Part shown: positions 28,701 to 63,648 of the stretch, in pieces
Position numbering within the stretch: the stretch's first letter is position 1
Layout of the letters: the number at the start of each line of letters is the position of its first letter
Source of the DNA: a virus
Direction: 5' to 3' (one strand)
DNA: 64,000 nucleotides
Virus record (IMG/VR): IMGVR_UViG_3300045988_087402
Notes under the pieces: model-generated
Databases searched by the model: none
Seen by the model: the letters and a program-made list of their open reading frames with translations, nothing else
Told to the model about the DNA's origin: nothing
Translations under genes and position numbers: made by a program

Positions 28701-31700
28701 AATAATGATAAATTTAAAAAGGCTTTTACTTTTAAAGTTTCTAATATAGATATTATAAGTATAAGAGGTAGAGCTATAGAAGGAATTATTAATAATCTAA
28801 CTAAATATGCAAATGATAGAATTAATGAAGATAATCAGAAATTATATGATAGAGTTTATAATGAATTAAATTCCATATATGCTCAATCTGTATATGACGG
28901 AGAAATTCTTTTAATAAAAGATTATTTATATGATATATTTTATATAAATCTTCCTGCTAAATCTGCTGAAATAAATAATCAATTTAATAGTGAATATTTA
29001 GATAAATTTATAGATAATTTAGCTAAATACATAGAACGTTATATTTCTATTGATTTTACTAATGATAAATTTAAGTTTAAATATAATACAAATATTAATG
29101 AATTTATTAATACATTAGAGATATATTTTGATGAATTTGAAAGTCTATTAGCTAATAAGTTTTATACTCAATATACTCTTCAAGATTTTAGTGATTTAAA
29201 TAATGAATTAGCAAATAAGTTTAATTCTTTTAAAGAACAATTATTAAAAGATTATAATAAACAGCAAGAAGTTAGGAAAACTGAATTAGATAAAATTAGA
29301 GCTGAATTAGATACAGAAGAATCTGCAAATAAAGACTTTCTAAATGCTATAATAGATTTTATATCTTTTAGTAAATCTACTGATTCAAATATAGAAGATA
29401 GAGAAAATATATCTAAAAATGATTATAGATATTATGTAACTCCTGATAGATTAAATGCATATATCACCTTAGCAAATGTTATATCTAAATGGAAAGTATC
29501 TAATTCTTTTAATCCTAATAGAAAACTTTCATATACGGATATTTTATCTATTATATATAATACTCCGGAAGGTATTGAAAAAATAGATGATATTTATAAA
29601 TCTTTATGGAGAGCTTTAAAAGCTGCTTCTGATATTGATTCTATAGAATCTCTAAAAGATGAAATAAAAGAGAATGTTCCTAAAGAAAATTATAAAGAAT
29701 TTTTTAATATATTAGATACTATAGTAAATAATATAGTTCCTCCTATACGTTCTATCGAAAGTAAATATCTTGATAAATTTGATAATATTACTTCTGCTTA
29801 TATTAAAGATTTTAAGAAAACACATTTTCCAGAAAGAATCGAATATGGTACACATGAAGGTGTTCCTTTAAGTAATAATATAATATTCGATTCTCTTAAA
29901 TCTGCTATGGATTCTAAATCTAATAAAATAGAACATTTAATAAAAATCGAAGATAAAACTTATTCTCCTACCGAATTAATAAATATTTATAAAAATATTA
30001 CAAATGGTACACCTATAGCTGCTAAATATGATATTGAATCTAATATTGTAACTCTTACTGTTACTATTAACGGAAATACTGTACCTATTGGTAGTATTGG
30101 ATTATCCGACCACTTGAAAATCGGCAATTTAAAGGCATATAAAGAACTTAAAAATTCCGGTGGAACACTTATATACGACAGTTTTTTGGGTACGTCAGAT
30201 GGCTTAAAATCGACCTTAATAAGCCTATTACAAACGGTATCAAAAAGTCCCACTACATACGACTTAATACGTGAATATTTTAAAACTTATTTAAATGCTA
30301 AGACAAATAATACTACGACAGATAGCCTTACTATTGATATACTTAAAGATATTATAAGTAAATTAGATAAAATAGGTACACATAAAAATGCTGGAGGACA
30401 TTCTAATATAGTTAACGCTCTTATACAACTTTCTAATTATAATACGGAGAGAGAAGATACAGATGAAATAAATTATGAAGATTTATTTACTATCATTCAA
30501 CCTATGTTTTATGGTAGACTGAATATTATTGATTCTCTTAATAATAATTATTATGATTTAAAAAATAGTTATGAAATATTTAATAGTCGTGTTGGAGAAA
30601 GATTTAATCAATTAGAAACTCTTAGAAAAGCTATAATTAATAATCCTGATGCACCACTTATTATAACATATATAGGAAAACCTCGTATTAATTATAGTAA
30701 TGATAGACGTATAAAAAATAATATAAATGATTCTATTCAAAAAGATATAGAAGTTAATGGAAAACCTACTGTAGATATTATAGCAAGACAATTAACAAAT
30801 AATAGATATATTGTATCTTCATTAACCAGAAATGAAATAGTATCTGATGATGCTGCAAAGCGTACAATATATGACCCTAACAGAGGATTTGATTTTTATG
30901 TTAGAATAAAGTCGAATGGAACTGATACAGGTTTTAGTTATGTTCCTATTAAACTTACTACTGTAAATTCTGATACTGCATATTCAAGAGTTAGTAAAGA
31001 ATTTATTGAAGATGCTATTCGACAAATAATAACAGATAGGTTTCTAACTAATCTTTCTACAAGACAATCTAAAGATAATGTAATTGTTTCAGATTTAGTT
31101 AAGAAAGAATATAATAAAAAATATTTAAATCTTATTGATGATATAAGCGAAGCTATTATAGTTAATAATGGTGAAAAATCTAAGTTTCCTTGGTTTGATA
31201 CAAGTACACTTTATGATAATAAAAAAGAAGGTTTTGTAAGTAAAGATATTAAATTTATTATTAATAAGGACGATGAACATTCTTATGCTGTCTCTCTTAG
31301 AATTAATTATGAGCATGATATTGATGTAGATTCTCCGTCTATAATAAAGAATATAAAACTTACAGTTTATGATAGTAGAGAAAATCGTATAAAAGGTACT
31401 CCAAAAGATATATTTACTCAGACAGAATTATCTAAATACGGATTTGCTAAAAGAGATAGTAAAATAAATAAATCGGATGTTATTACATATAGTAAATCAG
31501 ATAAAAGTAAAACTATAACATTTGATGTTAATAATGATAATATAGAAAATTTTATTAAAAGTGGACTTATAGATATGTTAGTTGGTAATATGGTTCGTAA
31601 TGTAAAAACTGTATTAACAAATGGTTCATATACATATACTTCTAAAGCTACAGGAGCTTCATTTGGAAAATCATATAATGAAATAGATAAAAATAATATA

Positions 31701-33248: not shown

Positions 33249-36200
33249 ATGAATTATTGTAATATTATTCCGACTATTGGAGAAAGTAATACACCTTCTC
33301 ACGTATTTACTTCTGTATTAAATCTCGGTAATATTATTTCTACAGAAGATATACTTTCTATGGATATTAAAGCTAAATCTATTAGAGATTTAGCTACTTT
33401 AATATTTAAATATTCTCAATCTGCAAATATAATAAATAAAGGTTTTCCTACTTATGAAGATACAGGCGAAGTAAAACTTGAATATACACTTAAATATATA
33501 ATTGATAATCCTAATATATCTAATAGTAGTGCTAAAAGGATATATCAAAAAATGCTTGATTATTTAAAAGTAGATATTGAAACTTTATATAATCCTACTA
33601 TAAAATATAATGGAACTTTTTCGAGAACTGATTTAAATTATAGTAATGCAGTTCTTGTACAAATATATAATGAACTTATTGAAGAAATTCCTAATCTTCG
33701 TACTAAAAGTCAAATTACATTAAAGAAACTAATTCTTAATAGACTTTTAGAGAAAATGGCTCCTTATCGAGCTAATGATAATACTTGGGAACAATTTGTT
33801 AATGATTATTTTGAAGATGTTCTTAAAGTAGATTCTATAATTTGGAATGAGTTTATTACTTATTTATCTACTGAATATGGAATTAAATATTATAATGTTC
33901 AAAAAGATTTAACTCTTTCTGATATAGAAGGTACTTTTACTACCGATGGAGTTGAGGAAATATGGGATGCTTCAAGTCAAGATAAAATAAATAGAAAAAA
34001 TACTATAGCAGCTATTGTTAAAAATAAACTTGCTAAAATATTAAATGATGTTAATCACGGAGATTCTACTGTTAATAAACTTTATATTCCACTTCCTATG
34101 GATATAAATAGTTTATGGAATAGGTTAATAAATCTTCATATTTATGATAAAACTCGCGGAGATATTGTTGCGAGTTTAGAAAGAGTAATTCTTCAATTTA
34201 ATGATACTGAGAAGTTTACTGATAAAAGTAATATAATTGGTTTTCAAAAAATTTTAGATGAATTTCATAAAGCAGATGAGGGAATTGTCGATTCTCAAAA
34301 CTTTGTAAATGCTTATATAAGTGGTGTTGCTCTTGCTGTTATACCTGTTAATGCTATTGCATTAGACGTCGATTTTGTCGCCTCCATAATGACGCAAAAT
34401 AGGGCTTCTTTTGCATTCAATGTTTACTATGATAGATTTATATCGGTCATTCAAAATAATTTAAAATTCGGGTTGTATGACCCCTTTAATGAGGCGTCAG
34501 AGCGTGCCACCGTTATAACCGACAATGGGATATTAAATATAGATAAAACATTAGATAGTATAACAAATGCTATAAATGTTATTGGATTAGATATTAGTCA
34601 TAGAGCTTTATTATCTTATATAAATTCTCAATCCGATAAACAAGGTGCTCTTCAAGAAGTTTCTAATACTTTAAATTATATTTTAAAAGAGATAGATACT
34701 CTTAAAGGAAATAGGGATATAAATTACGAATCATCTACAGATAATAGAGGTGCTTTATATAGATTAGCTAATATTGCATCTTTAGATTTTGATTCTATTG
34801 GTAAATTGAGTTATTTAGATGTTCGAGGAGAACTTAATTATAGTCCTCAATATGAAAATTTATTAACTTCTCTATTCAGAGGTATAGCTGTAAGAGGTAA
34901 AGTTCGTGAAGATTATCTTAATTATAGATTTAAAGATTATCTTAATGACCCTACTTTAAAATTTGATAATCTACTTTGGTATGATGATGCTACTGGAATA
35001 GGCATATTTGAACATACGAAACGTGTCGACGGAGAAGGTTATAAATTAAATGATTCTTTTGTAGATAGATTAGCTAAAGGTGAAGAATTTATTATTAGTA
35101 AATTTGATGGTATAAGAATTTCTGAAGATTATAGTAGTAGAGGATATAAATATAAAAGTATTCAATCTACTACTTATAAATTTACAGAAATTCTTGCTAA
35201 TCTTATGGGACAATATATCTTTTTAACTTCGGATAGTCCTCGTAGTTATATGATTAGTGTAAGACATATAGATATTGATGATTTATATGTCAATGAAGTT
35301 ATTAATATTAAATCTAAAATATTTACAGCTTTAAGTAAGATTGTAGATAATAATTTACGAATATTTGAACTTTATGGTTCTCGTGTATTTAATATTGATT
35401 TGAATACTGATGAAGGTAAAGATTTAGCTACTTCTATTCATAATGTTAAATATTGGAATGGTAAAACTATTTTTGATAAAGATGGTATTCCTACAGGTAG
35501 AGCTTTTAAATTTTTAGATTTAACATATAATGATGGAAATGGTTCTGTAAATATTATAAAATATATAGCAAATGAAAATGGTGTTTCTGAATCAGATGTA
35601 TATAAAGAACTTGTTAAATCTGTAGTCAATGGTGTTATTTCTAAATATGATGTATCTTCATATATACCAGCTTTTGTAACTAAATATATACAATATGCTG
35701 AAAATAGTGCTGAATCTGATTTTGGAGATATAGCTGAATTAGTTAGTCGAGTATCTATTAAATTAGGAGATACAAGATTATCTTTAATAGAAGATTCAAG
35801 AAATGATGCTATAGATGAATTATATAATGATTATATAGAAGATTATAAAAATCGTCATAAACAAGAACCTTCTTTTAAACAAAAAGAAGTTTTATATGAA
35901 CGTTCAAAACGAGAAGTTTATGATACTAATACAGAAATTGGAAAAGAAGTTTATAAAAAAGCTATTTTAAAAATTATATTAAATAATGCTGTATATGGTA
36001 CTTCTTTTGATGGTCTTGTTTATGGCAAACTTAGTGAATATAAATCTACAATAGATTATAATAAACGTGGTACACAAATAGTTAAAACGGGTCTTAATTC
36101 TATAGATACAGGTAAACCTATAAAAATACTTGTTGTAGAAGATATGGAATTTGCATCAAATATTATTGATAAAATGTTTGTCGATAGTACAGATGTTACT

Positions 36201-39200
36201 GAATTAGCTATTAAAAAATCTTATGAAAAACCAGCTACTATAAATGATTCAATGTCTATCATAACAGATGTTAGATTTGAAGATTTATTGAAATCTACAG
36301 GAAGATGGGATGAATATAAGAAAATAGTAGCTGATTTAAGAGATGAAACTGAAAAATTTAATCCTTTTTTATATGATAAACTTATAGAACAATTAAAATT
36401 ATTTGGTGTAGCTCGTAGAAGAAGAGGTGATTTTCTTATTAAAGATACAGCTGTTTATGATGATTCTGGAAATATATTATCGGATATATTTGCAGATGAA
36501 GTAGATACTGTTCAGATAAAAGACTCTACAATAGTATTATTTAAATCTACAACTCGTGGTACGGCAATGGGTGATGTATATGATTATATGATAGATAATG
36601 ATATACAACAAATATCTCCTAAATCTGCTGTTAAAGTATCCGGTATAACACCTATTAAAATACATGATGACAAAGGTAGATTTGTAGCTCCTATTGTAGA
36701 TTCCAGAAGTCTTCTTAATATGAAGTCTTCTGATTTTGTTATACAGCAAGATGTAAAACCTGATATAATAGATGCTGAAGTTACTGTTCCTTCTCGATTA
36801 TTTAAAAATATATTAGGAACTCTTTCAGCAAGTCATTATACTGTAGACGGTAAATCTTATACTCCTTATGAATTTGCAAAAGAATTTAATACTATTGTTT
36901 CATCTACTATTCAAGAAGATGCTATAAGTGTTGCATACGAATTGGGAGCTATAGATGAAACCGGTAATATTCGTACAGATAATGTAGGTAATATACAACT
37001 TGATACAAGAAAACTTACAAAATATTTTCAAGATGTTGTTCAAGATGATAATTCAAGTATTAATATTAAAAAAGCTCTTGAATTAGATTCTGTTGGACAA
37101 CCTAAAATGCCTTTATCTTTTCCTGTTACATATAGGAAATTTGAAAGAATATTGGCTTCTAAATTTACTAAAGATGTAATATATAGAAAACTTCCCGGAT
37201 TTCATGCTCCTTTAAGAGCTGATATATTTACTGCATCTAATAGTTTAATTTCTCGTGAACAATACCTCGATAAAGATAGTTATGATAAAGCTATTGAAGA
37301 TTTATATGAAAGGGGTATTATAACTTATTCAAGAGATTTTATAGATAGATGTAAAGCTGAAGGTAGAAGTCTTGAATTAAGAGCTGAATACGGTTATGAT
37401 GAAAATGGTGAATTAATATATAAAGCAGAAGTTATAGCAAATCCTTGGTTAAAAGAGTTCTTTGATACCATACCTATTATAAGAAGAGTTGATATGGGCG
37501 ATGGTGTATATAAAGAATTTTTAAGTGTTGATATAGATGCTATACCTATTGAAGCAAGAACTATGTTTGGAGGTAGGATACCTTCTGAAGGTTTAATGTC
37601 TCTTGTAGTTTTTGAAATAGTAGGATTTTTAAATACTGGTGCAACTCAAGCTATATTTCCTCAAAGTCTTATTACACGAACAGGTTGGGACTTTGATATA
37701 GATACTATTTATGCTTATGCTAAACATATTAATTTTAATGGAGAATCATATACTATTCCAAAATATGATAGTAAAATGATTTCTGAAATTAATGAAAATC
37801 TATCTAAATATTATGCTTTAAAAGATATATTAAAAGAAAGTCTTGAAATTATAAAAGTGACTAAGAGTGATACAGATACTTCACTTAATAGTCCAGCTTT
37901 TAAGATATTAACTAAATATTTTATTAAACTTTATTCTTCTGATAGTAATACAGATGTTTCTTTAGATTCTATTATTCCGACTTTAGATAGTATTCTTGCT
38001 ACTATATCTAATAAAGAAAGTATAGAATATAAGAATATTTTACGTATAAAAACTTATGTTCAAGAATCTATACCTTCTATTGTATCAAGAGTTAAAGTTA
38101 ATTTTACAAATCTTATTAATACAGCTCGTGAATATACAGAAGCTATAGAATATTTAAAATATATTAAACAAAGAGATTTAACACAAGAAGAACGAATTGA
38201 TTTAAATCCGGGAATAGATAATAATTATGTTCAAAATAAACGACGTATGTTTAATGAACTTTTATTATCTATTGAAAGAGATATTAAAACTACTAATAAA
38301 ATATTTAATAAAATTAAAACTTTAATTAATAGTATAGATATAACTTCTAAAGATAGTGATAATATTATATCTATAAATGATTATTATACTGTTAAAGATT
38401 TTTTTGAACCTTTTATTAAAGGTAGTATTAAAAATGATAGTGGTAAAGTTATAAATATATTTTCTATATTTGATAATATAGAAGAAAAGATTAACAGACA
38501 ATATACAGGTCTTAAAGAATCTAAAGGATATGATTTTGAAGATATAAGTGAATCTGTTACTATAAGTCGTCAGGCTCGTGATAATAGAATTATAGATATG
38601 GTAATATCTGTATTATCTAATAAAAATCATAGAATTGATATTGATAAACCTAATAGTTTTGATAATATATCTGCTGTTTCAGCAAGAGATAATGCTTTAT
38701 GGGGTAAATCTAATAATGGATTAAATCCCCACAATTTAGCTGATAAAATATCTTTAAATATTAGTAGTATGTCATCTACTATATTAAAGGGATATTCTAT
38801 TAATACAGATGGTAATATAGCTATATTAGGTAATCTTCATGCTAAACTTAATAATCCTGTTAGAAGAATAATTTCTATAGATTCTTTACCTAATAATGTT
38901 ACAAAAGAAGTATTAGATTCTGTATTAGGAAGTGATAATTGGAGTTACACAGAAGATGGAAGATATGTTATAGTAGAGGATGTATGGGTTGGTAATAATG
39001 CTTCTAATACTTTTACTGATTTATCTGGTGAAAGAATTAATATGCAACTTACTGAAGTAACAGCTGCTATTCTTGATGTATTAAAGTCTGAATTAATGTT
39101 CAATTTAAATCTCGATACCATTGGTGTATTTAGACTTTTATCACAAGGTTGTGTTACTGAATTATATAATGGTAAACCTAATAGATTTAGTTATGCTTCT

Positions 39201-42200
39201 GCTTTTATAATGCAACCTGTAATTGTAGAATTAGTAAATTTTAAAAGTGGAGCTATAATTACAAATCCTAATTTTAGTATATTAGATGCTTGTAATACTC
39301 TTATAATAAAATATACGGATATTCTTAATTCTAAATATGAACAAAAAATTCCATATTATTATTATAAATATAAATTACATACTACTGAAGAATTAGTTAG
39401 ATTTATTAAGAATAGAAATAATGAATCTTTAAGTTATTATTTAGGTCAATTAGATGTTTTATATCTGTTTAGAGAATATGAGACTATATCTAATGATATA
39501 ATTGATTTATCATTTGTATTAAAAACCGATGTTCCAGTTAATGATTTTAATACAGCTGATGAACGTGAATCTAAACTCGCGGATTCTTATATAAATAGAG
39601 ATAAATATTTTAGTATATTAAGAGATGCGTATACAAAATCATTAAGTTATATAGATTCTATATCTGAAACAGAAGAATATTGGGATAATTATAAAGTTTT
39701 ATTTACAGATTTTAAATCTCTCTCTACAGGAGATTTTAAAATAAAATATCCTAATATTAGTTATAAAGATATAGAATTTATTACATTACCTAATTATTAT
39801 GAAGCTCTAAATGATTTTCCAAATCTTATCACATGGCAAGATAGAAAAAATAAGTTAGAACTTCTTAATATATCTTATAAACCAGTTGGTAATGTAACAG
39901 TAAATGGACAAGATATTATAAGTGTTGTATTTACAGGTTTAAATGAAAATTATAAATTTAATGGTATAATAAAGCCTAATTATAAAGATAGTCTTTATGG
40001 TATAATTCAAGTTAGAGAACAGTATGGACATTGGTTGTTTGCTAATTCTTTTAATAAAGTTTTCGCACAACGTTCTTTGGCTATGAGAAAAGCTGTTCGT
40101 ACTTTCTTACAGCAAAATGGAAAATCTTATAATAGAAAAGCTAATAATTATGTTACAGGAAAAGTATTAGAATATTATATACAATCTTACGGAGATGAAA
40201 CTGTACCTATAATGTCTAATATTCCTGCAAAACAAATTAAAACAATATTAGGTATAATATCTGATGAAGAGAGAGCTAAACATAATAAATATATAAGTGA
40301 GTTACAAAATAATTTAGGAGATGTTATAACTAACGACAAATTTTCTAAATGGGTTAGTTTAACATTAGAAGAACAAATTAATTTAATACTTAATGATAAA
40401 TCTCTTAAATCTTATATTAATAAAGCTGATTTTAGATTTTCTAATATATTTAATCATTTACAAATAGTAAGAGATAGTATAAGACGATATGGTTATTCTG
40501 TAATAAGAATTATAACAGACGATTCAAATAAACTTTCTATAGATGATGTTTCATCTGGTATATTAACTATGTATCAAAGTGATATACCTTATATAGCACA
40601 TACTATTAGAAATTTAATTGCTTATACTTATATAACAGAAGGTTTTACTTATGGTGCTAATATATCTAAATTTATACCTATAGAAATACTTACTTCTGAT
40701 TTAGTAAATGAAAGTTATCAAAAACGTATAACACAAATCGGTGTAATAGACCCTACTATAGGTATATCTGATTATGGACAAGCTCTTCGTACAGCTGAAA
40801 CAAAACTACTTAATGGTGAAACTTTTAATATAGAAGAATCACTTGATTATATAAGTAGACAAAATCCATCTATAAATGCTACTATACCAAGTTATAGAGA
40901 ACAACATAGAATTAATAATAGTACAATATATCAAGCAACATTTGGTCTTTTAGTTAATTCTGAAGGATATAATGTTGGTAAAATGCGAGTTACAGATGCT
41001 AATGGTATAGAACGTAATATAATATTTGAAACAAAAGAACGTGTTATAGCTTCTACTCGTTCTAATGCAAAATATCTTACAGAACGTTTAGATGGTAATG
41101 TAACTATTTATAAAAGAAGTGATTCATTTTTATATAATACAACAGATAATTCTAAAGAAGTTTATTATTATTATCCTGTTAGTAGACTTCTTCCTAATGA
41201 ATTTTCTGAATATAGTATCATAGATAAATATAATGTATCTGATAGAATACTTATTCAGGATGAAAACGGAACAATATCTACAATAGATGTTGATACATTT
41301 GTTAAAAGATATAGTACGTTAAAAGATTTCTTAATTACTTTAAATAAATTAGAATCTGAATATAAAAATAAAAGTAATAAAGATGCTCCAGCTAATTTTG
41401 AAAATAATTCTGATGAAGGAGTTATAATAAATGTTCCCTATGATTATGTAGAAGAAGTTTCTTATGAACCTGAAGAAATATCCGAAGATGTACCTATTGA
41501 ATCTAAAAGAAAATCACCTTTATATTCTTTAGGAATAACTTTTGAAGATACTGTTACTGAAAAAAGTAATAAATCTCTTATAGAAACTGTTAAAGATGAA
41601 GTTTCTAAAAATGATAATCTTATTTATATAGGACATGAATCAAATATTGTTAGTAGAATATATGATACGAATGGTAAATTTATTCATGTTGATTTTACTA
41701 AAAATCCTTATGATGAAGCCAATAGAATTTCTAAGTTGTTAAAAGAAGGTGATTATCTTATAGTAGGTGATAGATTTGAAGATGCTGGAATTACTACAGA
41801 AACAGGTTCTATATGGACAAAACTATTTATAGATAAACTTTATCAAAATAATGGTAATATAAATTCTATAAATACTATATTAAATGATGGTTTTGGATTT
41901 GCTGTATCTCAATCTTATGTAGATGTAAATAGACGCAATGTAACTTATTCAGAACCTAAGCAATTATTTAGTAAAACAATTAATATAAAAAAGCCTTCTA
42001 ATATAGGTATTGAAACTCGTACTAAAAAGAATAGTATAATAGCTCTTGATTATTATCAAAGTCTTGATAAATTAAAAAAGTTTTTAGAAAGAAATAATAT
42101 ACCTAATACAGCTGCTATATTAGATGCTTATAGTAATATAAATAAAGAAGATTACGATGGTTCATTAGAAAATGACATAAATGATGCTAATCAAAATGCT

Positions 42201-45200
42201 GTATTTTATGCTTTTGAAAGAATGATTCCTATAATGGAAAATCTTATGGATTCTATAAGACTTCTTTTAATGGAAGTTGAAAGTGTAAATACAGATACAA
42301 TTAGAAATGATTATGCAAAATGGCAAGATTATAAAGTAAAAGTAAATAGTCTTAGAATTTTAATTGATTATCTTAATAAGTTTAAAGATATTCAACCTAT
42401 AACTATAAACGATACTATTTATAACTCTGAATCTGAAGAGGATGTTGCATCATTTCATGAAGAATTTGATACAGCTAATAAAGCTATTGAACGATTATCT
42501 GAATTATATAATAAATCTATTAGTTTACAAAGTAGAGTATTAGATAAAGTTCAAGAAATTATAGTAGATTTAGTTATAACTCAAAGTCGTAATCCGAATT
42601 ATGCTACAGCTTTTTCTAAAGTATTAGAAGCTGCTCGAAAAAATGATTTTGATTCTTCTACTTTTGATATAGAAAATCTTAAAATAACAAGTGAAGAATA
42701 TAATGATATAGTAGCTAAAGTATTTGCTCTTAAAAATTCGGATATTACTTTTTGGCAAAGTAAATTAGATTCTCCTTTTGTAACAGGTGTAACACTTACT
42801 GACATAATAGGTAAACAATATACTACAATTAAGTACGAAAATAATAAAAGAATTAATAAATTATTAGATAAAGTAGAAGATGCTATAAAAGAATTAGAAA
42901 AAGCTGAAAACTTAAATCTTTCTACTTATGAAGCAAGAAATAAATATTTTCGTAAATTTGTTAATGATTATGGTACTTTTATAAATGATTATAATAAAGA
43001 TGCTGTAGATGAACAAGTTCAAGGATTAAAAGATTCTATACAAGATTTATATAATAGAAAATATTATGGTGCTACATATATTGATGAAAGACTTGTAGAT
43101 GATATTATAAAAGAAACTGATGATTATATTTTAGATTTTAATACAAATTCTGATGGAATATTAATCCCTCTAACAGATGAAGAAGTAGATTCTTTATTAA
43201 AAGAAATAGAAGGTAAGTCAGATGTTGTTATAAATAATTATCTAAAATATAATGGATACTATGAAATAAAAAGGATAACAAAAATAGGAGAAACTCCTGA
43301 AAAAGTATTTTATAAATTATCTTATAAAGATAGTGCGAAAAATGTTAAATATAGTGAATTGACAGAAGCTGAATTAAAGTTTTTAAATACTATTAAAACT
43401 ATTATTGGAAATGTTATTTTAGAATATAATCCGTCTTGGTTTATTTCTCCGGATGCTATAATAGATATATTTCCTTATTTAGCAAAACCGGATTCAAAAA
43501 ATTCACTTAAAAGATTTATAGGTGTTCCCGGAATTAAAAAAGATTCTACTTATGAAGGACTTGATAGAAAAAATAAATATATACTTAAAGCAAGTACCTT
43601 AAGTATACCTAATTTCAATCCTGTTTTTAATATTCCTAAAAGAAGAGTAGGAGAAGTTTATGATGATTATGCTGAAAGAGTAGCAAGAGAATTTAATGAA
43701 TGGTATAGAAAAAATCCGGATGCAATAGAGCCAAAAACTCAATTAAAATCTATTGCAGATATTAGAGATTATAATAGTTATGTTAGAAAGTTAAATCATA
43801 CAGAAGCTATTGATAAAAGAACTTATGATATAAAAGCTGTAATGGAATCTTTTATAAAAGAGCTTTATAATATCAAAATTGTTAATGATTTTATTATAGA
43901 TTGGGAACTCGGTAAATTTGCATTAGATAGTGCAGCTGGTGAAGCTAAAATAGATAATTTGTCAGCTATATTTGAATCTATGCGAAAACGAGTTTATAAT
44001 ACAAGCAAAGTTAATAATACAGTAGATGTTATAGCTAAAGGTATAATGCGATATTCATCTATTAATTATATGTGGTTTAACTGGAGTGCTGGATTAAAGA
44101 ACTTAGCAAAAGGTATATCAGATATGATAATTGATACTTCATCTATTAATTATCTTACAAGTAAACAACTTATGCAAGGTCTTTTAGATATAATTAAAAT
44201 AACTCCTGAATGGATAGCTGAAATAAATAAAGAAAAAACTAAGAATCCAATTATAGCTTTAATTAAAGATTTTGAAGTTATATTTCAAGATACACGAGAT
44301 ATAAATGTTAGTATGACAGGAGAGAACTGGTTAACTAAAGTTTTAACTGCTGCTGATACAGCCGGTTATAGTCCTAACCAAATAGGTGAGTTTTTTATGC
44401 AATTTGGTATGCTATTAGGTATGTCTCGTTCTCACAGAGTTATAGCTGGTCAGATAATGTCATTTCAAGACTTTTATAATGATTCTAAAATAGAAGAATT
44501 ATCTAAAGTATTAACTGATGAACAAAAAGAAGAATTTGCTAAATTTGTAAAAGCTAAAAATGATTATATAATAAAATATGAAAATGAAAATAAAAAGAAA
44601 TATCTTTGGCAAAGTGATTATGCAGGTGAATTTATAAGGGCTAATATAGATAAATTTACAAAAGAACAACGAATTGAATTAAATAAATTAATTAAAGATA
44701 ATAGAAAAGTTCTAAAAGAAAGATTTGAAAGATTTCCAACATTGGATTCTCAATTAACTGTTGTAGATGGTAGATTAGCTTATAAAGAAGGAAGTCAATT
44801 AACAGATAAATCTGTAAATGATTTTAAAAATAGAGTTAAAGGCGTAAATCAAGCTCTACATGGTATTTACAATATAATTGATAAAAATGCTTTACAAGAA
44901 AGTGCATTTGGAGATTTATTCATGCAATTTAGAAAATGGATTCGTCCTAACTTTATAAGATATTGTGGACGTCGTTTTAATAAAACTATATTTAATGAAA
45001 TGTTAGGTACATGGGAAGTACCTGTATATAAACCGAGTTTTGATTGGGCTACTTATGGTTATAAAATGTTTAAACAAGATAGTGATATTGTTAAGCTAAA
45101 TATATTTAAAGACCCACGTGCATTCTTTAAAGGTTTATTTGAGATGTTTAATTATCAATATAAACTTCTTAGACATGCTAAATTATATTATAATTCTCTT

Positions 45201-45653
45201 ACTAAAGGTGAACAAGCAAGTATTATTAAATGGGCTAAACATTTATCTACTATAGCTATTATTGCAGTAGCTGCAATGATGTTAGGTAAATTAAAAGATG
45301 ATGATGAACCTTATTATTATACTGTAACAATGTATACACTTACAGCTTTATATAAAGAAGTTGTTGAACCTGTGCCTCTTTATGGTTGGTATAGTACAAT
45401 AAATCAAATGAAAGATAAACTCTTTGTTGGAGAAACTGTTATAACTAATGCTATGAATATTGTTAAATATGCTATGGCAGATGTATTTACAGATGATGAA
45501 TCTTTAGTTTATGACAGAGGTGTTTATAAAGGTCAGACAAAATTATCTGTTTCAGTTAAGAAGTTAATACCTATATTAACTCAAATAGAAAAGAGTAAGA
45601 ATCTTAAAGCTACAATGAATTGGTATAAATGGTATAATCCTTTTAATTTATAA
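33249..45653 (+). CDS. giant protein containing a crAss-type virion RNA polymerase module (DPBB catalytic motif DFDID)
   Basis: 4134 aa. ...TRTGWDFDIDTIY... at nt 37683-37706 matches the DxDxD metal-binding loop of the two-barrel RNAP (phi14:2 gp66-like). Size consistent with fused cargo proteins in some crAss-like lineages. Confidence 0.5.
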   Translation: MNYCNIIPTIGESNTPSHVFTSVLNLGNIISTEDILSMDIKAKSIRDLATLIFKYSQSANIINKGFPTYEDTGEVKLEYTLKYIIDNPNISNSSAKRIYQKMLDYLKVDIETLYNPTIKYNGTFSRTDLNYSNAVLVQIYNELIEEIPNLRTKSQITLKKLILNRLLEKMAPYRANDNTWEQFVNDYFEDVLKVDSIIWNEFITYLSTEYGIKYYNVQKDLTLSDIEGTFTTDGVEEIWDASSQDKINRKNTIAAIVKNKLAKILNDVNHGDSTVNKLYIPLPMDINSLWNRLINLHIYDKTRGDIVASLERVILQFNDTEKFTDKSNIIGFQKILDEFHKADEGIVDSQNFVNAYISGVALAVIPVNAIALDVDFVASIMTQNRASFAFNVYYDRFISVIQNNLKFGLYDPFNEASERATVITDNGILNIDKTLDSITNAINVIGLDISHRALLSYINSQSDKQGALQEVSNTLNYILKEIDTLKGNRDINYESSTDNRGALYRLANIASLDFDSIGKLSYLDVRGELNYSPQYENLLTSLFRGIAVRGKVREDYLNYRFKDYLNDPTLKFDNLLWYDDATGIGIFEHTKRVDGEGYKLNDSFVDRLAKGEEFIISKFDGIRISEDYSSRGYKYKSIQSTTYKFTEILANLMGQYIFLTSDSPRSYMISVRHIDIDDLYVNEVINIKSKIFTALSKIVDNNLRIFELYGSRVFNIDLNTDEGKDLATSIHNVKYWNGKTIFDKDGIPTGRAFKFLDLTYNDGNGSVNIIKYIANENGVSESDVYKELVKSVVNGVISKYDVSSYIPAFVTKYIQYAENSAESDFGDIAELVSRVSIKLGDTRLSLIEDSRNDAIDELYNDYIEDYKNRHKQEPSFKQKEVLYERSKREVYDTNTEIGKEVYKKAILKIILNNAVYGTSFDGLVYGKLSEYKSTIDYNKRGTQIVKTGLNSIDTGKPIKILVVEDMEFASNIIDKMFVDSTDVTELAIKKSYEKPATINDSMSIITDVRFEDLLKSTGRWDEYKKIVADLRDETEKFNPFLYDKLIEQLKLFGVARRRRGDFLIKDTAVYDDSGNILSDIFADEVDTVQIKDSTIVLFKSTTRGTAMGDVYDYMIDNDIQQISPKSAVKVSGITPIKIHDDKGRFVAPIVDSRSLLNMKSSDFVIQQDVKPDIIDAEVTVPSRLFKNILGTLSASHYTVDGKSYTPYEFAKEFNTIVSSTIQEDAISVAYELGAIDETGNIRTDNVGNIQLDTRKLTKYFQDVVQDDNSSINIKKALELDSVGQPKMPLSFPVTYRKFERILASKFTKDVIYRKLPGFHAPLRADIFTASNSLISREQYLDKDSYDKAIEDLYERGIITYSRDFIDRCKAEGRSLELRAEYGYDENGELIYKAEVIANPWLKEFFDTIPIIRRVDMGDGVYKEFLSVDIDAIPIEARTMFGGRIPSEGLMSLVVFEIVGFLNTGATQAIFPQSLITRTGWDFDIDTIYAYAKHINFNGESYTIPKYDSKMISEINENLSKYYALKDILKESLEIIKVTKSDTDTSLNSPAFKILTKYFIKLYSSDSNTDVSLDSIIPTLDSILATISNKESIEYKNILRIKTYVQESIPSIVSRVKVNFTNLINTAREYTEAIEYLKYIKQRDLTQEERIDLNPGIDNNYVQNKRRMFNELLLSIERDIKTTNKIFNKIKTLINSIDITSKDSDNIISINDYYTVKDFFEPFIKGSIKNDSGKVINIFSIFDNIEEKINRQYTGLKESKGYDFEDISESVTISRQARDNRIIDMVISVLSNKNHRIDIDKPNSFDNISAVSARDNALWGKSNNGLNPHNLADKISLNISSMSSTILKGYSINTDGNIAILGNLHAKLNNPVRRIISIDSLPNNVTKEVLDSVLGSDNWSYTEDGRYVIVEDVWVGNNASNTFTDLSGERINMQLTEVTAAILDVLKSELMFNLNLDTIGVFRLLSQGCVTELYNGKPNRFSYASAFIMQPVIVELVNFKSGAIITNPNFSILDACNTLIIKYTDILNSKYEQKIPYYYYKYKLHTTEELVRFIKNRNNESLSYYLGQLDVLYLFREYETISNDIIDLSFVLKTDVPVNDFNTADERESKLADSYINRDKYFSILRDAYTKSLSYIDSISETEEYWDNYKVLFTDFKSLSTGDFKIKYPNISYKDIEFITLPNYYEALNDFPNLITWQDRKNKLELLNISYKPVGNVTVNGQDIISVVFTGLNENYKFNGIIKPNYKDSLYGIIQVREQYGHWLFANSFNKVFAQRSLAMRKAVRTFLQQNGKSYNRKANNYVTGKVLEYYIQSYGDETVPIMSNIPAKQIKTILGIISDEERAKHNKYISELQNNLGDVITNDKFSKWVSLTLEEQINLILNDKSLKSYINKADFRFSNIFNHLQIVRDSIRRYGYSVIRIITDDSNKLSIDDVSSGILTMYQSDIPYIAHTIRNLIAYTYITEGFTYGANISKFIPIEILTSDLVNESYQKRITQIGVIDPTIGISDYGQALRTAETKLLNGETFNIEESLDYISRQNPSINATIPSYREQHRINNSTIYQATFGLLVNSEGYNVGKMRVTDANGIERNIIFETKERVIASTRSNAKYLTERLDGNVTIYKRSDSFLYNTTDNSKEVYYYYPVSRLLPNEFSEYSIIDKYNVSDRILIQDENGTISTIDVDTFVKRYSTLKDFLITLNKLESEYKNKSNKDAPANFENNSDEGVIINVPYDYVEEVSYEPEEISEDVPIESKRKSPLYSLGITFEDTVTEKSNKSLIETVKDEVSKNDNLIYIGHESNIVSRIYDTNGKFIHVDFTKNPYDEANRISKLLKEGDYLIVGDRFEDAGITTETGSIWTKLFIDKLYQNNGNINSINTILNDGFGFAVSQSYVDVNRRNVTYSEPKQLFSKTINIKKPSNIGIETRTKKNSIIALDYYQSLDKLKKFLERNNIPNTAAILDAYSNINKEDYDGSLENDINDANQNAVFYAFERMIPIMENLMDSIRLLLMEVESVNTDTIRNDYAKWQDYKVKVNSLRILIDYLNKFKDIQPITINDTIYNSESEEDVASFHEEFDTANKAIERLSELYNKSISLQSRVLDKVQEIIVDLVITQSRNPNYATAFSKVLEAARKNDFDSSTFDIENLKITSEEYNDIVAKVFALKNSDITFWQSKLDSPFVTGVTLTDIIGKQYTTIKYENNKRINKLLDKVEDAIKELEKAENLNLSTYEARNKYFRKFVNDYGTFINDYNKDAVDEQVQGLKDSIQDLYNRKYYGATYIDERLVDDIIKETDDYILDFNTNSDGILIPLTDEEVDSLLKEIEGKSDVVINNYLKYNGYYEIKRITKIGETPEKVFYKLSYKDSAKNVKYSELTEAELKFLNTIKTIIGNVILEYNPSWFISPDAIIDIFPYLAKPDSKNSLKRFIGVPGIKKDSTYEGLDRKNKYILKASTLSIPNFNPVFNIPKRRVGEVYDDYAERVAREFNEWYRKNPDAIEPKTQLKSIADIRDYNSYVRKLNHTEAIDKRTYDIKAVMESFIKELYNIKIVNDFIIDWELGKFALDSAAGEAKIDNLSAIFESMRKRVYNTSKVNNTVDVIAKGIMRYSSINYMWFNWSAGLKNLAKGISDMIIDTSSINYLTSKQLMQGLLDIIKITPEWIAEINKEKTKNPIIALIKDFEVIFQDTRDINVSMTGENWLTKVLTAADTAGYSPNQIGEFFMQFGMLLGMSRSHRVIAGQIMSFQDFYNDSKIEELSKVLTDEQKEEFAKFVKAKNDYIIKYENENKKKYLWQSDYAGEFIRANIDKFTKEQRIELNKLIKDNRKVLKERFERFPTLDSQLTVVDGRLAYKEGSQLTDKSVNDFKNRVKGVNQALHGIYNIIDKNALQESAFGDLFMQFRKWIRPNFIRYCGRRFNKTIFNEMLGTWEVPVYKPSFDWATYGYKMFKQDSDIVKLNIFKDPRAFFKGLFEMFNYQYKLLRHAKLYYNSLTKGEQASIIKWAKHLSTIAIIAVAAMMLGKLKDDDEPYYYTVTMYTLTALYKEVVEPVPLYGWYSTINQMKDKLFVGETVITNAMNIVKYAMADVFTDDESLVYDRGVYKGQTKLSVSVKKLIPILTQIEKSKNLKATMNWYKWYNPFNL

Positions 45654-46242: not shown

Positions 46243-46277
46243 AAATTTCGGAACACCTCTCGCCCTTGTGGCCATTA
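46243..46277 (+). repeat. GC-rich element copy B (aaatttcggaacacctctcgcccttgtggccatta), forward
   Basis: Left arm of a convergent inverted pair with copy C. Confidence 0.85.
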
Positions 46278-46334
46278 TACTGTGTATAATACTATGTAAC
46301 ACTATAAGTTTAATAGTTACATCCGAATTAAATA

Positions 46335-46390
46335 CAGTATTAAATACAATATTAAATTCAGTATTAAATACAATATTAAATTCAGTTGTT
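46335..46390 (+). repeat. 24-bp tandem repeat cagtattaaatacaatattaaatt x2 (+ partial) between copies B and C
   Basis: Read directly. Confidence 0.9.
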
Positions 46391-46429
46391 ACTTTATTAT
46401 ATTAAGTGCTAACTATAGAGACATTTGTT

Positions 46430-46466
46430 TAATGGCCACAAGGGCGAGAGGGTGTTCCGAAATTCG
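46430..46466 (+). repeat. GC-rich element copy C (reverse orientation: taatggccacaagggcgagagggtgttccgaaattcg)
   Basis: Reverse complement matches copy B except for one extra c. Confidence 0.85.
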
Positions 46467-50952: not shown

Positions 50953-52135
50953 AATATTTAGAATAATTTATTTTTAATAATGTATATACTTTATCGGATA
51001 ATCTTTTAATTTGTGGATGAGCACATTTTGCACTCCGTTGAGGAATAAAACCTTTATTTTCTTTTATAATAATTCCATTAATATTATTTTCGATAGATTC
51101 TCCAACCCACATATCCATAGTTCCTGTCATATATAATTCAGTCTTTAAACCGAGTGGTAATATATCTCTCGCAAATTGTTGATTTATACCAATTTCAATA
51201 GAATCTTTATAATATTGTTCACATGTAACATAACCATCTGTTTCTATTTCATTAAATGTAATTATTGAATTAGAAGTTTCTTTACTTCTTACATAATCAC
51301 TTATATTATAAGATGGTATAAATTTAATTGTATCACCAGATTTGCTATAATTTATATATCTTGTAGATTCTTGCATAGGAGCTATTTCACTATGACGTAT
51401 AATTTCATTTGCTATAGCCCTATTTGTAATAAATTTAAAAGTTGAAACATATATTTCTGGAGCATTCATTAATATAATATTTGGATTAACACGTTTTAAT
51501 GCATCATTTATATAAGATTTAGTATAACTTTCCGGAATATAATCTATCATAGAATAATCTATATTAAATATACTTTTTAATTCCGGTGTACAATCCCACA
51601 TTTTATTAATAATAATATTCATTAAATGGTAATCATTAATGAAACTTTTTCTTACATCATTTCTTTTGCTATTAATTAACATATCTAATAAACTTCTATA
51701 TGATACAGCTATATATCTTGCGTCATTAGATACTTGTATATATCTATTATAATAAATAAGTTTATAAATAATATCACTTGAAGATAAAAAGAAAGCATTT
51801 ACAAGACCACCTATATCAAAATATACAAATTCATGAGCTAATATAGAAGTGTGACCATCTTTTATTCGATTTTTTACAAAATTAATATAACTATTTTCTG
51901 TAATGTTATGTTCTTTCTTAGTACATACTTTACCTATAAGTTCTATTTTTTTAAGACCTTCTTTGATAATTAATTCAACAGAATCATTAACTATTTCCAT
52001 ATCTTTAAAAGAATTAATTTTATTATTAATTACGAATGATAATGAGATTTGATGTGTATACAAGTCGTGTTCGTAGAATGCCCGTAAAGGCCATAAATAA
52101 GCCCTATAATCGAATATAATTTTTAAGACGAACAA
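50942..52135 (-). CDS. thyX: ThyX-like flavin-dependent thymidylate synthase (extended)
   Basis: RHSEIAPMQESTRY fits the ThyX signature RHRxxSxxxxSxRY with two substitutions. 397 aa is longer than the canonical ~230 aa. Confidence 0.4.
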   Translation of the reverse strand: MFVLKIIFDYRAYLWPLRAFYEHDLYTHQISLSFVINNKINSFKDMEIVNDSVELIIKEGLKKIELIGKVCTKKEHNITENSYINFVKNRIKDGHTSILAHEFVYFDIGGLVNAFFLSSSDIIYKLIYYNRYIQVSNDARYIAVSYRSLLDMLINSKRNDVRKSFINDYHLMNIIINKMWDCTPELKSIFNIDYSMIDYIPESYTKSYINDALKRVNPNIILMNAPEIYVSTFKFITNRAIANEIIRHSEIAPMQESTRYINYSKSGDTIKFIPSYNISDYVRSKETSNSIITFNEIETDGYVTCEQYYKDSIEIGINQQFARDILPLGLKTELYMTGTMDMWVGESIENNINGIIIKENKGFIPQRSAKCAHPQIKRLSDKVYTLLKINYSKYYDF

Positions 52136-60005: not shown

Positions 60006-61416
60006 TTAATTAAAAGGTAAATCATCAGAATCATCTTCATCAAAAGAAGTACTTATTATAGTAGGAGTATCGTTTTGATTTATACTTTCTAATAAAAATC
60101 TATTATCAACTTGAAAATCATCTATACTTCTACGTACATCTTCTTTTCGTCTATTATTAATTCTATTAGAACGATTTATAGTTTCAAATTCACCTTCTAA
60201 TAAATTAGGTTTATCATTAGAAAATAAATCAAAATCTAATTGACGTTTTATAATACCTTCTTTCTTTTTATTTTCACCATTTAAAACCTTACTACATTCA
60301 CGTTTATAATAACTAAAATTTAAATGATAATTATCTTTATAAATATAGTTATTAAAAGGCTCTATAGAATATTTAGCTATAATACGAGATTCTTTATTTA
60401 TTGAATTACCATTATCATCTACACCATCAGAACATTGTTTTATAATAGTTCCTGTACCAGTATTACTAATATAAAATCTATTAGATTTTTGAAGTTTATC
60501 TCTAACAATTTGTCCGTCTACTATATGTTCATAATAAATAGTAAATTTACTATCACTTTTCTGACTTATACAATAATCATAAATAGCAAATTTTGAGCTA
60601 TTAATATGATTCATTATAGTATCTTCATAAGGGATACTATATATAAGTTGCAAGTTAAGAGCTTTAGCGATAACTGGAGAATTATATCCTTTATTAAAAA
60701 CTAAATCTTCAATAAAGAAACCTTTTCTCTTTATATAATCATCTTCTAATTCCTTTAATGCTTTCTTTTTATCTTCATCAGATTTATCATTAAAATCTGA
60801 ATTAATTAATTTAGCAAGATTTTCATTAAAACCTTTTTTAACAGCTATATAATCATTAACATCTTTTCTTAAATATCTTTCATAATCTGTATATTCAAGT
60901 TCAAAACCAAGTTTAGTTTGCCAAGCATTACATATATTATAATAAGTATCTTCTAAATGATAAGGTATCTTACAAACAATACCATCTGTATTAGCAGATA
61001 CAACGTTAATTCCATTAAGTTCTAATTCTTCAATTAACATAATAAGACATAATTGAAGATTTATAGTAGTTCTATAAGTACAATATGGGTCATAAAGAAA
61101 ATCATTACTATCACGAAATGCACCATACATTCTATTAATAGCAATTTTAAGACCTTCAGCTTTAGTTTTTAAAGATTTAGATTCCTTAGTTAATCTATCT
61201 ATTTCTTTATGTAATATTTCACTATCTTTATTAGATACTTTTTTATTTTCTAATAAAGACTTTATTTCATCAGCTTTCTTTTTATAATTTTTACTATTAT
61301 GTTTAGCTTCTACTCGCGTATCAGCAGTATATTTTACTGTATTAATAAAAGCATCTTCTTGTAAATGTTCCGGTGCTATATGAAATTTAACAATTCCACG
61401 AGGATAATATGAAGCA
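60006..61416 (-). CDS. polB: family-B DNA polymerase, exon 2 (motif A remainder SYYPRG, motif B KIAINRMYG, motif C VSANTDGIV)
   Basis: The frame is open upstream of the annotated Met to 61416. KxxxNxxYG and NTDG motifs in PolB spacing. Acidic C-terminal tail DDSDDLPF. Confidence 0.6.
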
Positions 61417-62476
61417 CATTATTGAATAACATTATTATCAGTAACTAACTGTCTGTTATTCCTATTAGTTTCCTAATAGATTAGACTATATCTTATACTT
61501 TACATTACCATTATCATCTATATAACGCCAAATATAACCATAAGCTGTTTTTTTATTACCATTACAACAACCTCTTATAGTTTGAGCTTTAAAAGTAGGA
61601 TTATCTTTTATAACATCTTCTATACGAGAATATACTTTAATAGGTACTCCGTTTAAATCATATTGCGCAACTTGATTACTTTTAATAATAGACATATATT
61701 CTCTATACTCTTTAGTTTTATGACTTTCTTTTGAAGTATTAGAATAAATAGTTTTTAGTCTATCACTTATATAATAATCAGAAATCTTTTCATTATAAAG
61801 ATTTTCAATACCTTTTGATATTTGATATTCTCTTTCTTTTTCTAATAAATTATCATTACATTCTTCAACAATTCTATAAACAAAACTATCAATACTATGT
61901 TCATTAAAATCATCCTGCATTGCATGATTAGTATGTTTATTTAATTTTAACTCTGAAAAATGTTTAGTAATTCTACTACCTATATTAGAAGTAGAGCCAA
62001 TATATTCTTTATTGGTAATTTTATTAAAAATAGAATATATTCCAGATTTACCATTCATATTAGAAAATGTACCATATTCAAATTTAGAATCTGAATTAGA
62101 ATATTTATTAGAATCTACTTTTACTAAATCGTTAATTTGTTTACTATCCATAATATTATCTTTATTGGTTAACACCTACTAAGACAATACCTTGATTGGA
62201 TAATACCTAAAATTATATAGACTAAATATATAAAGTATTGTGGCATTTCCAAATGAATTAGTTTTTTCATCTGTACTCCCATTAGGGATAGTCGTTGAGC
62301 TTTCATCTTAATAAACAATATTAAGACGCTTAGCTGCGGATTGCCCAATATTCTTACTTTTTACTATACCTTGAAAATTACTTCTTGCCATATCTATATT
62401 ACTACGATATTTAGTATAAGAATCTCTAAGGGGTTTCCCGCAATTAACCACATTAGGACGCTACATATTCATATTA
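61417..62476 (-). mobile_element. group I intron (IA-like) interrupting polB motif A, carrying a GIY-YIG homing endonuclease ORF
   Basis: On the minus-strand RNA, P element AAUUGCGGGAAACCCC is the complement of 62430-62445. Q element AAUCCGCAGC is the complement of 62333-62342. R element GCUCAACGACUAUCC is the complement of 62288-62297, with a GACUA/UAGUC P7 partner near 62217-62232. Boundaries chosen so that exon 1 ends in U and the intron ends in G, giving spliced D-V-A-S-Y-Y-P-R. Boundaries are +/- a few nt. Confidence 0.65.
61486..62175 (-). CDS. GIY-YIG homing endonuclease (intron-encoded)
   Basis: KSGIYSIFNKITNKEYIGSTSNIGSRITKHF is a classic GIY-(x10)-YIG plus R..H motif (I-TevI-like). 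C-terminal YGYIWRYID is a DNA-binding motif typical of Tev-family HEGs. Confidence 0.8.
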   Translation of the reverse strand: MLTNKDNIMDSKQINDLVKVDSNKYSNSDSKFEYGTFSNMNGKSGIYSIFNKITNKEYIGSTSNIGSRITKHFSELKLNKHTNHAMQDDFNEHSIDSFVYRIVEECNDNLLEKEREYQISKGIENLYNEKISDYYISDRLKTIYSNTSKESHKTKEYREYMSIIKSNQVAQYDLNGVPIKVYSRIEDVIKDNPTFKAQTIRGCCNGNKKTAYGYIWRYIDDNGNVKYKI

Positions 62477-63648
62477 ACGTCCGCATCTCTTAATATATAA
62501 TCATCTGCAACTAATATACCCGGTGTATCTTTACTATGTAATCCACCAAGAGCCATAGTATATTGATTATCACCGAATTTAAAAGTATAAGCAAATTTAT
62601 CTTTCTTATCTTTACTACCTACTATAATCTTAGATTTTAGAATAGTAGCTAAAAGATTATGTAGAGTAGGAGTTTTAAACTTTATTATATCAGATACTAC
62701 ATCTTCGAGATAAATAACTCTACGATTAGTTCTTAAATCATAAAAATCTTTTTTCTCAAGACCTGTAAAATCACTATATAATTTAGTAGTTATAGCTTTT
62801 CCGATAGAACTTCGAGACATATTACGAACATCAATTCCAAATTCACTTGTAATATCGTCTCTTAAATCAATTTCATCTTTAACAGTTCTTTTTAATGTTA
62901 ATGTAATTAAATCATCATTAACATTATAATCCATTATAGTTTCTATATCATCTTCATCAATATTAGCTAAATAATGAATAGGTAAATCTTGTATACGATA
63001 CCATTTTAATATAATAGCAACCTGTTTTAAACTCGTAAAAGATTTATCAAGATATAGAATCTTTTGAATATCATAATTTGTAAAAGGTATATTAAAACTT
63101 TTATTAATACCTAATGTATAAAGATAACCATTACCAAAATTAATACATTTTTGGCTATGTCTAAACATAAAATCTGTAAGATTCATTTTTTCTTTATAAT
63201 GATAACCTTCAGGAGTAACATATTTAGCATTATAAAGAAGAAGTATAAGCATTATTTTATCATAATTATTACTATTATATCCTGTAACAATTTTATGACT
63301 AATAAAAAAGTTTTGAATATAAAGTAAATCATTATGAAAATCTTTACCATTTAAACTATTCCAAATATAGAATTGTTTAGCACCCATTGCTGTAAGAATC
63401 TTTTTCTTATCAGCTTTATATTTTATTATATTATTTTGAAGATTATCTAAATAATCGTCTTTTTTAATAGCATCTTCAAAAGTTACATCTTTAATATAAT
63501 TATTAATTTTATCTTCAGCATCAATACGAAGTATATCAATATTTACATAAGTATCTATAAGCTGTTGAGAAACATCTTCCGGTATAAAAGTTACACCACA
63601 AAAATTCTTATAAATTTCAAAGTCATAAATATATTTTTTATCAGTCAT
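62477..63648 (-). CDS. polB: family-B DNA polymerase, exon 1 (3-5 exonuclease domain through the start of motif A)
   Basis: Exo I YIYDFEIYKNF (DxE), Exo II VTGYNSNNYDKI. The ORF ends ..LRDADVN right where motif A DxxSLYP should continue. The ORF-track tail (M)NM* is intron-encoded. Confidence 0.6.

Follow-up and report, generated by a model that had tools for sequence, protein, structure and literature searches.

A predicted mobile group I intron with a GIY-YIG endonuclease gene of patchy occurrence in the family-B DNA polymerase gene of the crAss-like phage Kahucivirus intestinalis

Analysis of the viral record IMGVR_UViG_3300045988_087402 from IMG/VR revealed a family-B DNA polymerase (PolB) gene that is very probably interrupted by a mobile group I intron with a homing endonuclease gene in its P8 loop, the intron being apparently fixed in the species and the endonuclease gene being in the course of deletion from it. 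The window, i.e., the whole 64,000-nucleotide (nt) stretch of DNA analyzed, represents a strain of the crAss-like phage Kahucivirus intestinalis (Crevaviridae), and its closest deposited genome was uncultured phage cr127_1 (MT774393; Kahucivirus intestinalis), which was collinear with the whole window at 97-99.8% identity. Coordinates refer to the window, and the polymerase exons and all intron features lie on its minus strand.

The polymerase was represented by two open reading frames (ORFs). The upstream ORF (395 amino acids, aa; 63648-62461) ends in ..RDADVNMNM*, and the downstream ORF (374 aa; 61130-60006) begins MYGAFRD within polymerase motif B; the frame of the latter stays open for 96 further codons on its 5' side, none of them an ATG, GTG or TTG, before a TAA at 61422-61420 closes it (chance of 96 open codons at the local base composition ~2.6e-4). 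Excising 62476-61417 (1060 nt) joins GAC GU to U GCU UCA and gives an 860-aa protein containing ..RDADVASYYPRGIV.., in which motif A is restored as D390-V-A-S-Y-Y-P. Exon 1 (62477-63648) encodes the exonuclease domain (Exo I D9/E11, Exo II D130, Exo III Y241/D245); its last complete codon is that of the catalytic Asp390 of motif A, and it ends two bases into codon V391. Exon 2 (60006-61416) supplies the third base of that codon, the remainder of motif A (ASYYP), and motifs B (KIAINRMYG) and C (SANTDG), and also encodes an acidic tail at the C-terminus. The insertion point falls after the second base of the codon following Asp390; 62477/61416 is the single combination that pairs a U-ending 5' exon with a G-ending intron in frame, and the predicted ligated-exon junction reads ..GAUGCGGACGU|UGCUUCAUAUUAUCC.. 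As read from the sequence, the first 96 codons of exon 2, conserved and lacking a start codon, can be expressed only via exon ligation. An earlier note on this DNA, made from the letters alone, had ended exon 1 and its Exo motifs at ..DADVN inside motif A, extended the exon 2 frame to 61416 through KIAINRMYG and NTDG, and proposed a splice that restores motif A; all three proposals were borne out, the last by the frame, the colinear homologues, the U.G wobble of P1, and the terminal intron G described below.

The spliced protein aligned with phrog_1252 (DNA polymerase) as one continuous match over residues 3-775 (E 2.5e-104). Comparison with uninterrupted relatives, which the note had suggested, gave approximately 40 homologues (26-68% identity) that were colinear across the junction and kept RDADV[AS]S[YF]YP. 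A Pfam search with the 860-aa polymerase alone returned no match, and a family profile was needed against PDB sequences, where archaeal family-B polymerases, Pol alpha, and E. coli Pol II were matched (best E 1.2e-9). In the profile alignment aDVaSyYP corresponds to LDFRSLYPSII (motif A), KIaiNriYG to KILANSVYG (motif B), and SANTDG to YSDTDG (motif C), as had been anticipated for a family-B enzyme, and the Exo I-III and motif A/B/C columns were invariant in the polymerase family alignment. These motifs assign the gene to the family-B DNA polymerases.

The insert (61417-62476) begins UAAUAUG... and ends ...AAUAAUG, with its terminal (omega) G at 61417. A P1 hairpin (62456-62482) pairs exon bases GGACGU (62482-62477) with the guide GCGUCC (62461-62456), placing a U.G wobble at the 5' splice site, and a candidate P10 strand, GUA (62464-62462), is able to pair with the first exon 2 bases, UGC. 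The 5' catalytic core (62239-62452) comprises P3 (UGUGGU), P4 (UUGCGG/CCGCAG), a P5/P5a extension, P6/P6a, J6/7 with the 5' strand of P7 (CAACGACUA, 62297-62289), P7.1 (UCCC-UAAU-GGGA, 62288-62277), P7.2 (CAGAUGAA..UUCAUUUG, 62273-62250), and the P3' strand (GCCACA, 62244-62239). P8 is formed by AUACUUUAU (62230-62238) and GUAAAGUAU (61503-61495), the latter followed by J8/7 and the 3' strand of P7 (AAGAUAUAGUC, 61494-61484). A P9 hairpin with a GAAA tetraloop (61479-61462), recovered by an Rfam half-match, by RNAalifold, and by the minimum free energy (MFE) fold, precedes P9.1 (61461-61424), after which AAUAAUG leads up to the omega G. The P, Q, R, and S core elements quoted in the note were present at their positions as AAUUGCGGGAAACCCC, AAUCCGCAGC, CAACGACUA, and UAGUC. 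The unconstrained MFE fold of the 352-nt ORF-less form of the intron (-87.7 kcal/mol) contained P1, P3, P4, P5, P5a, P6, P6a, P7.1, P7.2, P8, P9 with the GAAA loop, and P9.1, and the 5' core was 73-75% identical at the DNA level to SPO1-like and Twort-like phage genomes over 130-165 nt. P7.1 and P7.2 hairpins distinguish subgroup IA in the Michel and Westhof classification; their position here, between the P7 5' strand and P3', makes the intron IA-like (IA2-like), and both hairpins covaried in the related introns described below.

Whole-window Rfam scans were empty both at the gathering threshold (50 bits for RF00028, Intron_gpI) and at E<=0.01. In E-value mode Intron_gpI was matched in two halves: one of 34.7 bits (E 1e-6) at 62452-62239, covering model positions 50-157, and one of 31 bits (E 1.3e-5) at 61603-61462, in the 3' part of the model. 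The window remains below the threshold because the ~0.7-kb ORF in P8 splits the model into halves: the ORF-less 352-nt allele of cr127_1, with an identical core, aligned with the full model, P1 included, at 67.7 bits (E 6.5e-17). The E<=0.01 scan of the whole window missed the intron because filters tighten with sequence length, and consequently such scans cannot exclude other ORF-bearing introns in the window. The note had proposed an Rfam scan and regarded a silent model as speaking against an intron; the model was indeed silent in the window at the default setting, a false signal in view of the two sub-threshold halves and the score of the ORF-less allele. The threshold score of that allele, the U.G pair of P1 with the terminal G, and the covarying core mark the insert as a group I intron, and this reading of the note is supported by the covariance score, the MFE fold, and RNAalifold covariation.

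Related introns were identified at the same PolB position in other crAss-like phages. A search with the intron ORF gave 57 protein clusters of 214-246 aa; four sampled homologues each lay between two PolB fragments on crAss-like contigs of 73-92 kb, and a fifth, in the unannotated GenBank fragment MT838267, was likewise flanked by two PolB fragments. All five related introns (998-1061 nt) were inserted after GAC-[G/A]U, at the identical nucleotide position, with the ORF in the P8 loop. The exon and guide strands of P1 varied together (GGACGU/GCGUCC, CGACGU/GCGUCG, GGACAU/GUGUCG, GGGACAU/GUGCCCC), as did those of P10 (GUCGUC/GACGAU, UGCGUC/GACGCA, UGCAUC/GAUGCA, CAACUC/GAGUUG), and the P10 pairing independently confirms 3' splice sites previously placed by reading frame. 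The 3' strand of P8 stood exactly 2 nt 5' of GAUAUAGUC in 8/8 compared introns. Distinct helix variants were found for P3 (7/8), P7.2 (6/6), and P8 (8/8); strands of one intron paired at 100%, a figure that is partly circular in a hand-curated helix table, and strands exchanged between introns at only ~50-58%. Independent checks came from the MFE fold and from RNAalifold on eight introns with the ORF excised, which recovered P1, P4, P5, P6, P6a, P7, and P9 with compensatory changes at 18/36 pairs; the underlying MAFFT alignment was unreliable from P7.1 through P8, and RNAalifold was confined to the well-aligned parts.

A natural intron-less site, that of L008, reads CGTGATGCAGATGT|TGCATCTTATTATCC. 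One of the contigs with a related intron, L014, shows 72-77% relatedness to p-crAssphage, in which PolB has no insertion at this site. The PolB gene of cr271_1 (MT774394, Intestiviridae) has an ORF-less group I intron (2474-2843 of L009; Rfam 51.7 bits) with a core 72% similar to that of the window, inserted 5 nt upstream of the window's site in phase 0 (D|YTSYYP). A second group I-like intron was observed further downstream in PolB on crAss-like contig L012 (~4230-5300), with a P4-like AAUUGCUGG at 4246, GAUAUAGUC at 5194, and another ORF, of 241 aa, that matched GIY-YIG weakly (E 5.6e-4, below cutoff). A megablast search of locus L016 against deposited phages gave no match.

The endonuclease gene is part of a 708-nt cassette (61526-62233) in the P8 loop, flanked by 7-nt direct repeats TTATATA. 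The mechanical ORF call was 229 aa from a GTG at 62175 (62175-61486); the start is likely the ATG at 62151, as chosen by gene callers in public contigs, giving 221 aa (61486-62151). The 229-aa GIY-YIG ORF described in the note thus stands with a refined start: the protein matched Pfam GIY-YIG (PF01541; E 7.8e-9, 36.2 bits, cutoff 22.6) and the I-TevI catalytic domain (E 5e-8, 32% identity; structures 1mk0, 1ln0), and the N-terminal domain of its AlphaFold model (48 homologues; mean predicted local distance difference test score, pLDDT, 85) superposed on I-TevI 1mk0 with a template modeling (TM) score of 0.84 and a root-mean-square deviation of 1.6 A. The C-terminal part, a predicted DNA-binding module, weakly resembled I-HmuI (E 5.6e-3). 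Numbered from the ATG at 62151, residues Y39, Y50, R60, H64, and N120 were invariant in the 48 homologues, and H73 and E106 were at least 90% conserved. The catalytic Tyr, Tyr, Arg, His, Glu, and Asn place the ORF product among the I-TevI-type GIY-YIG homing endonucleases, with DNA cleavage as its predicted activity. No endonuclease at >=60% identity was present in deposited phage records. The last 13 codons of the gene traverse the P8 3' strand, and the P7 3' strand opens with the UAG stop of the gene (61488-61486); a single RNA molecule should accordingly be unable to fold as a ribozyme while it is translated as far as the stop.

The intron of cr127_1 is 352 nt long and lacks exactly the 708 nt of the endonuclease cassette, being otherwise identical; this was the only large indel in the 64 kb. 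Intron alleles were compared in 24 contigs holding both junctions. The 1060-nt form of the window was found in eight contigs; single contigs had a 1059-nt intron (1-nt change in the ORF leader), a 1076-nt intron (16-nt tandem duplication, AGGTATTATCCAATCA, in the ORF leader), and a 1044-nt intron (15-nt in-frame deletion with loss of the catalytic Asn, uncertain at 1x coverage). Nine contigs, cr127_1 among them, carried the 352-nt intron, explained by a 708-nt deletion between the TTATATA repeats, and two a 456-nt intron with an independent 604-nt deletion (62195-61592). Intron length variants were placed at window positions 62195-61592 and 62209 (loci L030, L039, L034, L036). The sample therefore held 11 deletion alleles, 10 intact ORFs, and one in-frame ORF deletion, and the endonuclease gene has been lost in about half of the sampled contigs via at least two independent deletions. 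The P8 loop of the 352-nt allele keeps ..AUAGAUGAUAAUGGUAAUG.., which encodes IDDNGNV, part of the family-conserved C-terminus WRY[IV]DDNGN; as these are codons of the endonuclease C-terminus, the ORF-less alleles are deletion derivatives and not ancestors. The junction of the ORF-less intron had no match in IMG/VR, although the allele is common in European Nucleotide Archive (ENA) assemblies.

Movement of the intron was indicated by contig L004, whose exons were 94.4% and 93.8% identical to those of the window and whose intron was identical at 1058/1060 positions (Fisher p ~1e-20). The nearest exon differences lay 22 nt before the 5' splice site and 31 nt after the 3' splice site, a pattern that indicates recent lateral transfer with short co-conversion tracts.

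Several points weigh against a mobile intron that splices and homes. Splicing is deduced from sequence, the pairing figures of the helix table are partly circular as noted, and the contiguous P10 of the window has only 3 bp (UGC/GUA), weaker than the 6 bp of its relatives. The intron identity of L004 could stem from ordinary recombination instead of endonuclease-driven homing. The exact 26-mer of the intron-less K. intestinalis junction was absent from IMG/VR and JGI metagenome contigs, and the spliced 860-aa protein was absent from a collection of 15 billion protein sequences, where the best uninterrupted relative was 67% identical. With no intron-less allele in the species, homing is not visible within it and the endonuclease may be functionally idle. 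This absence is to be taken with a caveat, since the 395-aa and 374-aa fragments, which share no sequence, were nevertheless placed in one 90%-identity cluster of 849 members that was not among the matches of the spliced-protein search, possibly through a tool quirk or a bridging full-length member.

These observations leave some room, well short of an even chance, for a functional ribozyme that is now only vertically inherited, with an idle or decaying endonuclease and an L004 intron acquired by general recombination. The missing empty site agrees with such a history, as do the endonuclease deletions in 11/24 sampled contigs and the additional in-frame loss of the catalytic Asn. It accounts less well for the ten sampled contigs that retain an intact 221-aa ORF with all catalytic residues, for the shift in divergence from 0.2% to ~6%, which takes place within 22-31 nt of either splice site and is what homing with short co-conversion tracts would be expected to leave, and for the diverged intron and endonuclease pairs held at the same site by distant PolB lineages.

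A decayed intron that no longer splices, with polB reduced to a pseudogene in this assembly, is very improbable. The silence of Rfam in the window at the gathering threshold and the ongoing deletion of the endonuclease gene could be read in that way; however, the sub-threshold score is explained by the P8 ORF, both exons are intact and conserved, and no second polymerase was noticed in the collinear genome. The ribozyme core was moreover 100% identical in most sampled contigs, the exceptions being a small number of point changes and, in one contig of 1x coverage, a P5 extension shortened by 17 nt, and the exon 1 ORF product, including its intron-encoded NMNM tail, had exact matches in 1179 public assembly blocks, as expected of a thriving phage. 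Least credible of all is a truly split polymerase whose two ORFs are translated separately and assemble as subunits around a spacer that is only an inserted endonuclease cassette, as reportedly occurs with gene 43A/43B of some T4-like Aeromonas phages and with some archaeal PolBs: the two separate 'DNA polymerase' coding sequences (CDS) annotated for cr127_1 in GenBank and the 395-aa and 374-aa products that gene callers give for hundreds of assemblies fit it, but the downstream ORF has its first start codon (61130) within motif B, behind the 96 conserved codons of the motif A remainder (with SYYP) and the fingers, the break falls within a codon one residue past the catalytic Asp, and the spacer has the make-up of a genuine group I ribozyme whose guides for the two exons (P1 and P10) covary. 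An intein was rejected, as the exon 1 frame stops four codons into the insert (..NMNM*) and the insert ORF occupies its own frame and has no Hint domain.

Under the preferred reading of a mobile intron, the pre-mRNA would fold as a subgroup-IA-type ribozyme comprising P1 and the helices from P3 to P9.1, P7.1 and P7.2 among them. Free guanosine would attack after U62477, held in its U.G pair with the guide GCGUCC, the released exon 1 would attack after the terminal G at 61417, and the ligated mRNA would be translated to the 860-aa polymerase with motif A restored. The P8-loop gene would produce a two-domain enzyme with an I-TevI-type GIY-YIG nuclease and a C-terminal DNA-binding module. During mixed infection, this endonuclease would cut intron-less polymerase alleles near the motif A codons, and repair templated by an intron-bearing genome would copy the intron in. 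The intron appears to be fixed in K. intestinalis, which would leave the endonuclease without a remaining target and subject to deletion, as expected late in the homing cycle.

A broader and rather speculative proposal, to which only a small likelihood is attached, joins three ideas. The intron and its endonuclease may belong to one lineage, distributed over several Crassvirales families, that is specialized for a single nucleotide position in PolB motif A. When strains of the most abundant human gut phages infect a cell together, whether each carries the intron, and whether that intron carries an endonuclease gene, may influence their competition via marker exclusion of the kind known for I-TevI and I-HmuI-type enzymes. 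Lastly, since the endonuclease ORF ends inside P8 and P7, translating ribosomes would unfold the ribozyme, and endonuclease expression may be inversely coupled to polymerase mRNA maturation.

Among known systems, the T4 td intron with I-TevI (group IA2) shares with the present element a phage IA-type intron with P7.1 and P7.2 in a nucleotide-metabolism or replication gene and an intron-encoded two-domain GIY-YIG endonuclease. The two differ in host gene (thymidylate synthase in T4, family-B polB here), in P2, none being aligned here, and in ORF location, which is the P6 region in td whereas the present ORF lies in P8 and reads into the P8 and P7 3' strands. I-TevI also has a zinc finger and helix-turn-helix in place of the weakly I-HmuI-like C-terminal part. 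Group I introns in conserved regions of phage DNA polymerase genes are likewise known from Bacillus SPO1/SP82 (I-HmuI/I-HmuII), Staphylococcus Twort/K-like, and T7-like phages; in contrast to the present case, these polymerases are of family A, their hosts are Bacillota or Proteobacteria and not Bacteroidota, and their endonucleases are mostly of the HNH type. Inteins in the motif A, B, and C regions of archaeal family-B polymerases are also selfish elements with homing endonucleases at the most conserved catalytic motifs of PolB, but splice at the protein level, unlike the in-frame stops and RNA ribozyme found here.

As the earlier note had stated, introns in crAss-like polymerases have been reported in general: the study by Yutin et al. 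(2021; PMC7886860) describes group I introns in the PolB, major capsid protein, and primase genes of Delta- and Zeta-group crAss-like phages, as typical for Delta. The phage order, the gene, and the element class are shared with the present intron. Introns were located there via protein domains, the text consulted gives no insertion site, RNA structure, or endonuclease type for this element, and genomes of the alpha-gamma groups are said to be without such insertions. In contrast to that statement, PolB introns were present in the window, whose phage belongs to the Crevaviridae (Gamma according to a 2023 review), and in cr271_1 (Intestiviridae, Alpha). No description of the exact element, its insertion site, RNA anatomy, or endonuclease type was found in the available literature, nor of a PolB intron in Crevaviridae and Intestiviridae or of the endonuclease-gene polymorphism. 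The element class in PolB is already known, and the present intron is a well-characterized example of a phage group I intron with a GIY-YIG endonuclease that leaves the current understanding of introns or crAss-like phages unchanged.

The RefSeq records of cr127_1 and cr271_1 list the polymerase as two CDS or fragments, and the exact splice coordinates allow correct annotation of this essential replicase in a very common human-gut phage. Default Rfam scans miss ORF-bearing group I introns and, as a result, intron surveys of phage metagenomes likely undercount them. Public data for one abundant species contained intact-endonuclease alleles, two independent deletion alleles, and a lateral transfer into a diverged lineage, an allele mix that shows a natural population late in the homing cycle and can also serve as a source of strain markers.

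Additional observations concerned other genes and regions. Rfam also identified a group I intron (80 bits, E 3.8e-19) in cr108_1 (MT774385, Steigviridae; 2443-2761 of L010); it is flanked by two very large CDS annotated as 'hypothetical protein' and probably splits one giant gene. The window itself encodes a single 4134-aa ORF (33249-45653, plus strand) whose cr127_1 counterpart is annotated as 'hypothetical protein' and is followed there by another very large ORF. A motif search for a second intron in the window gave only one other exact AGATATAGTC (39482-39491, minus strand), antisense within the 4134-aa ORF and with no core nearby, and it was discarded as a chance match. Besides the endonuclease cassette, the only stretch of the window unaligned with cr127_1 was 51461-51815 (353 vs. 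284 nt), adjoining the thymidylate-synthase region of cr127_1. Finally, 220 nt of the window (46244-46463) had a second cr127_1 match at 77% identity on the opposite strand (record positions 28679-28897), which suggests that the intergenic region preceding the giant ORF contains an inverted repeat whose copies have diverged.

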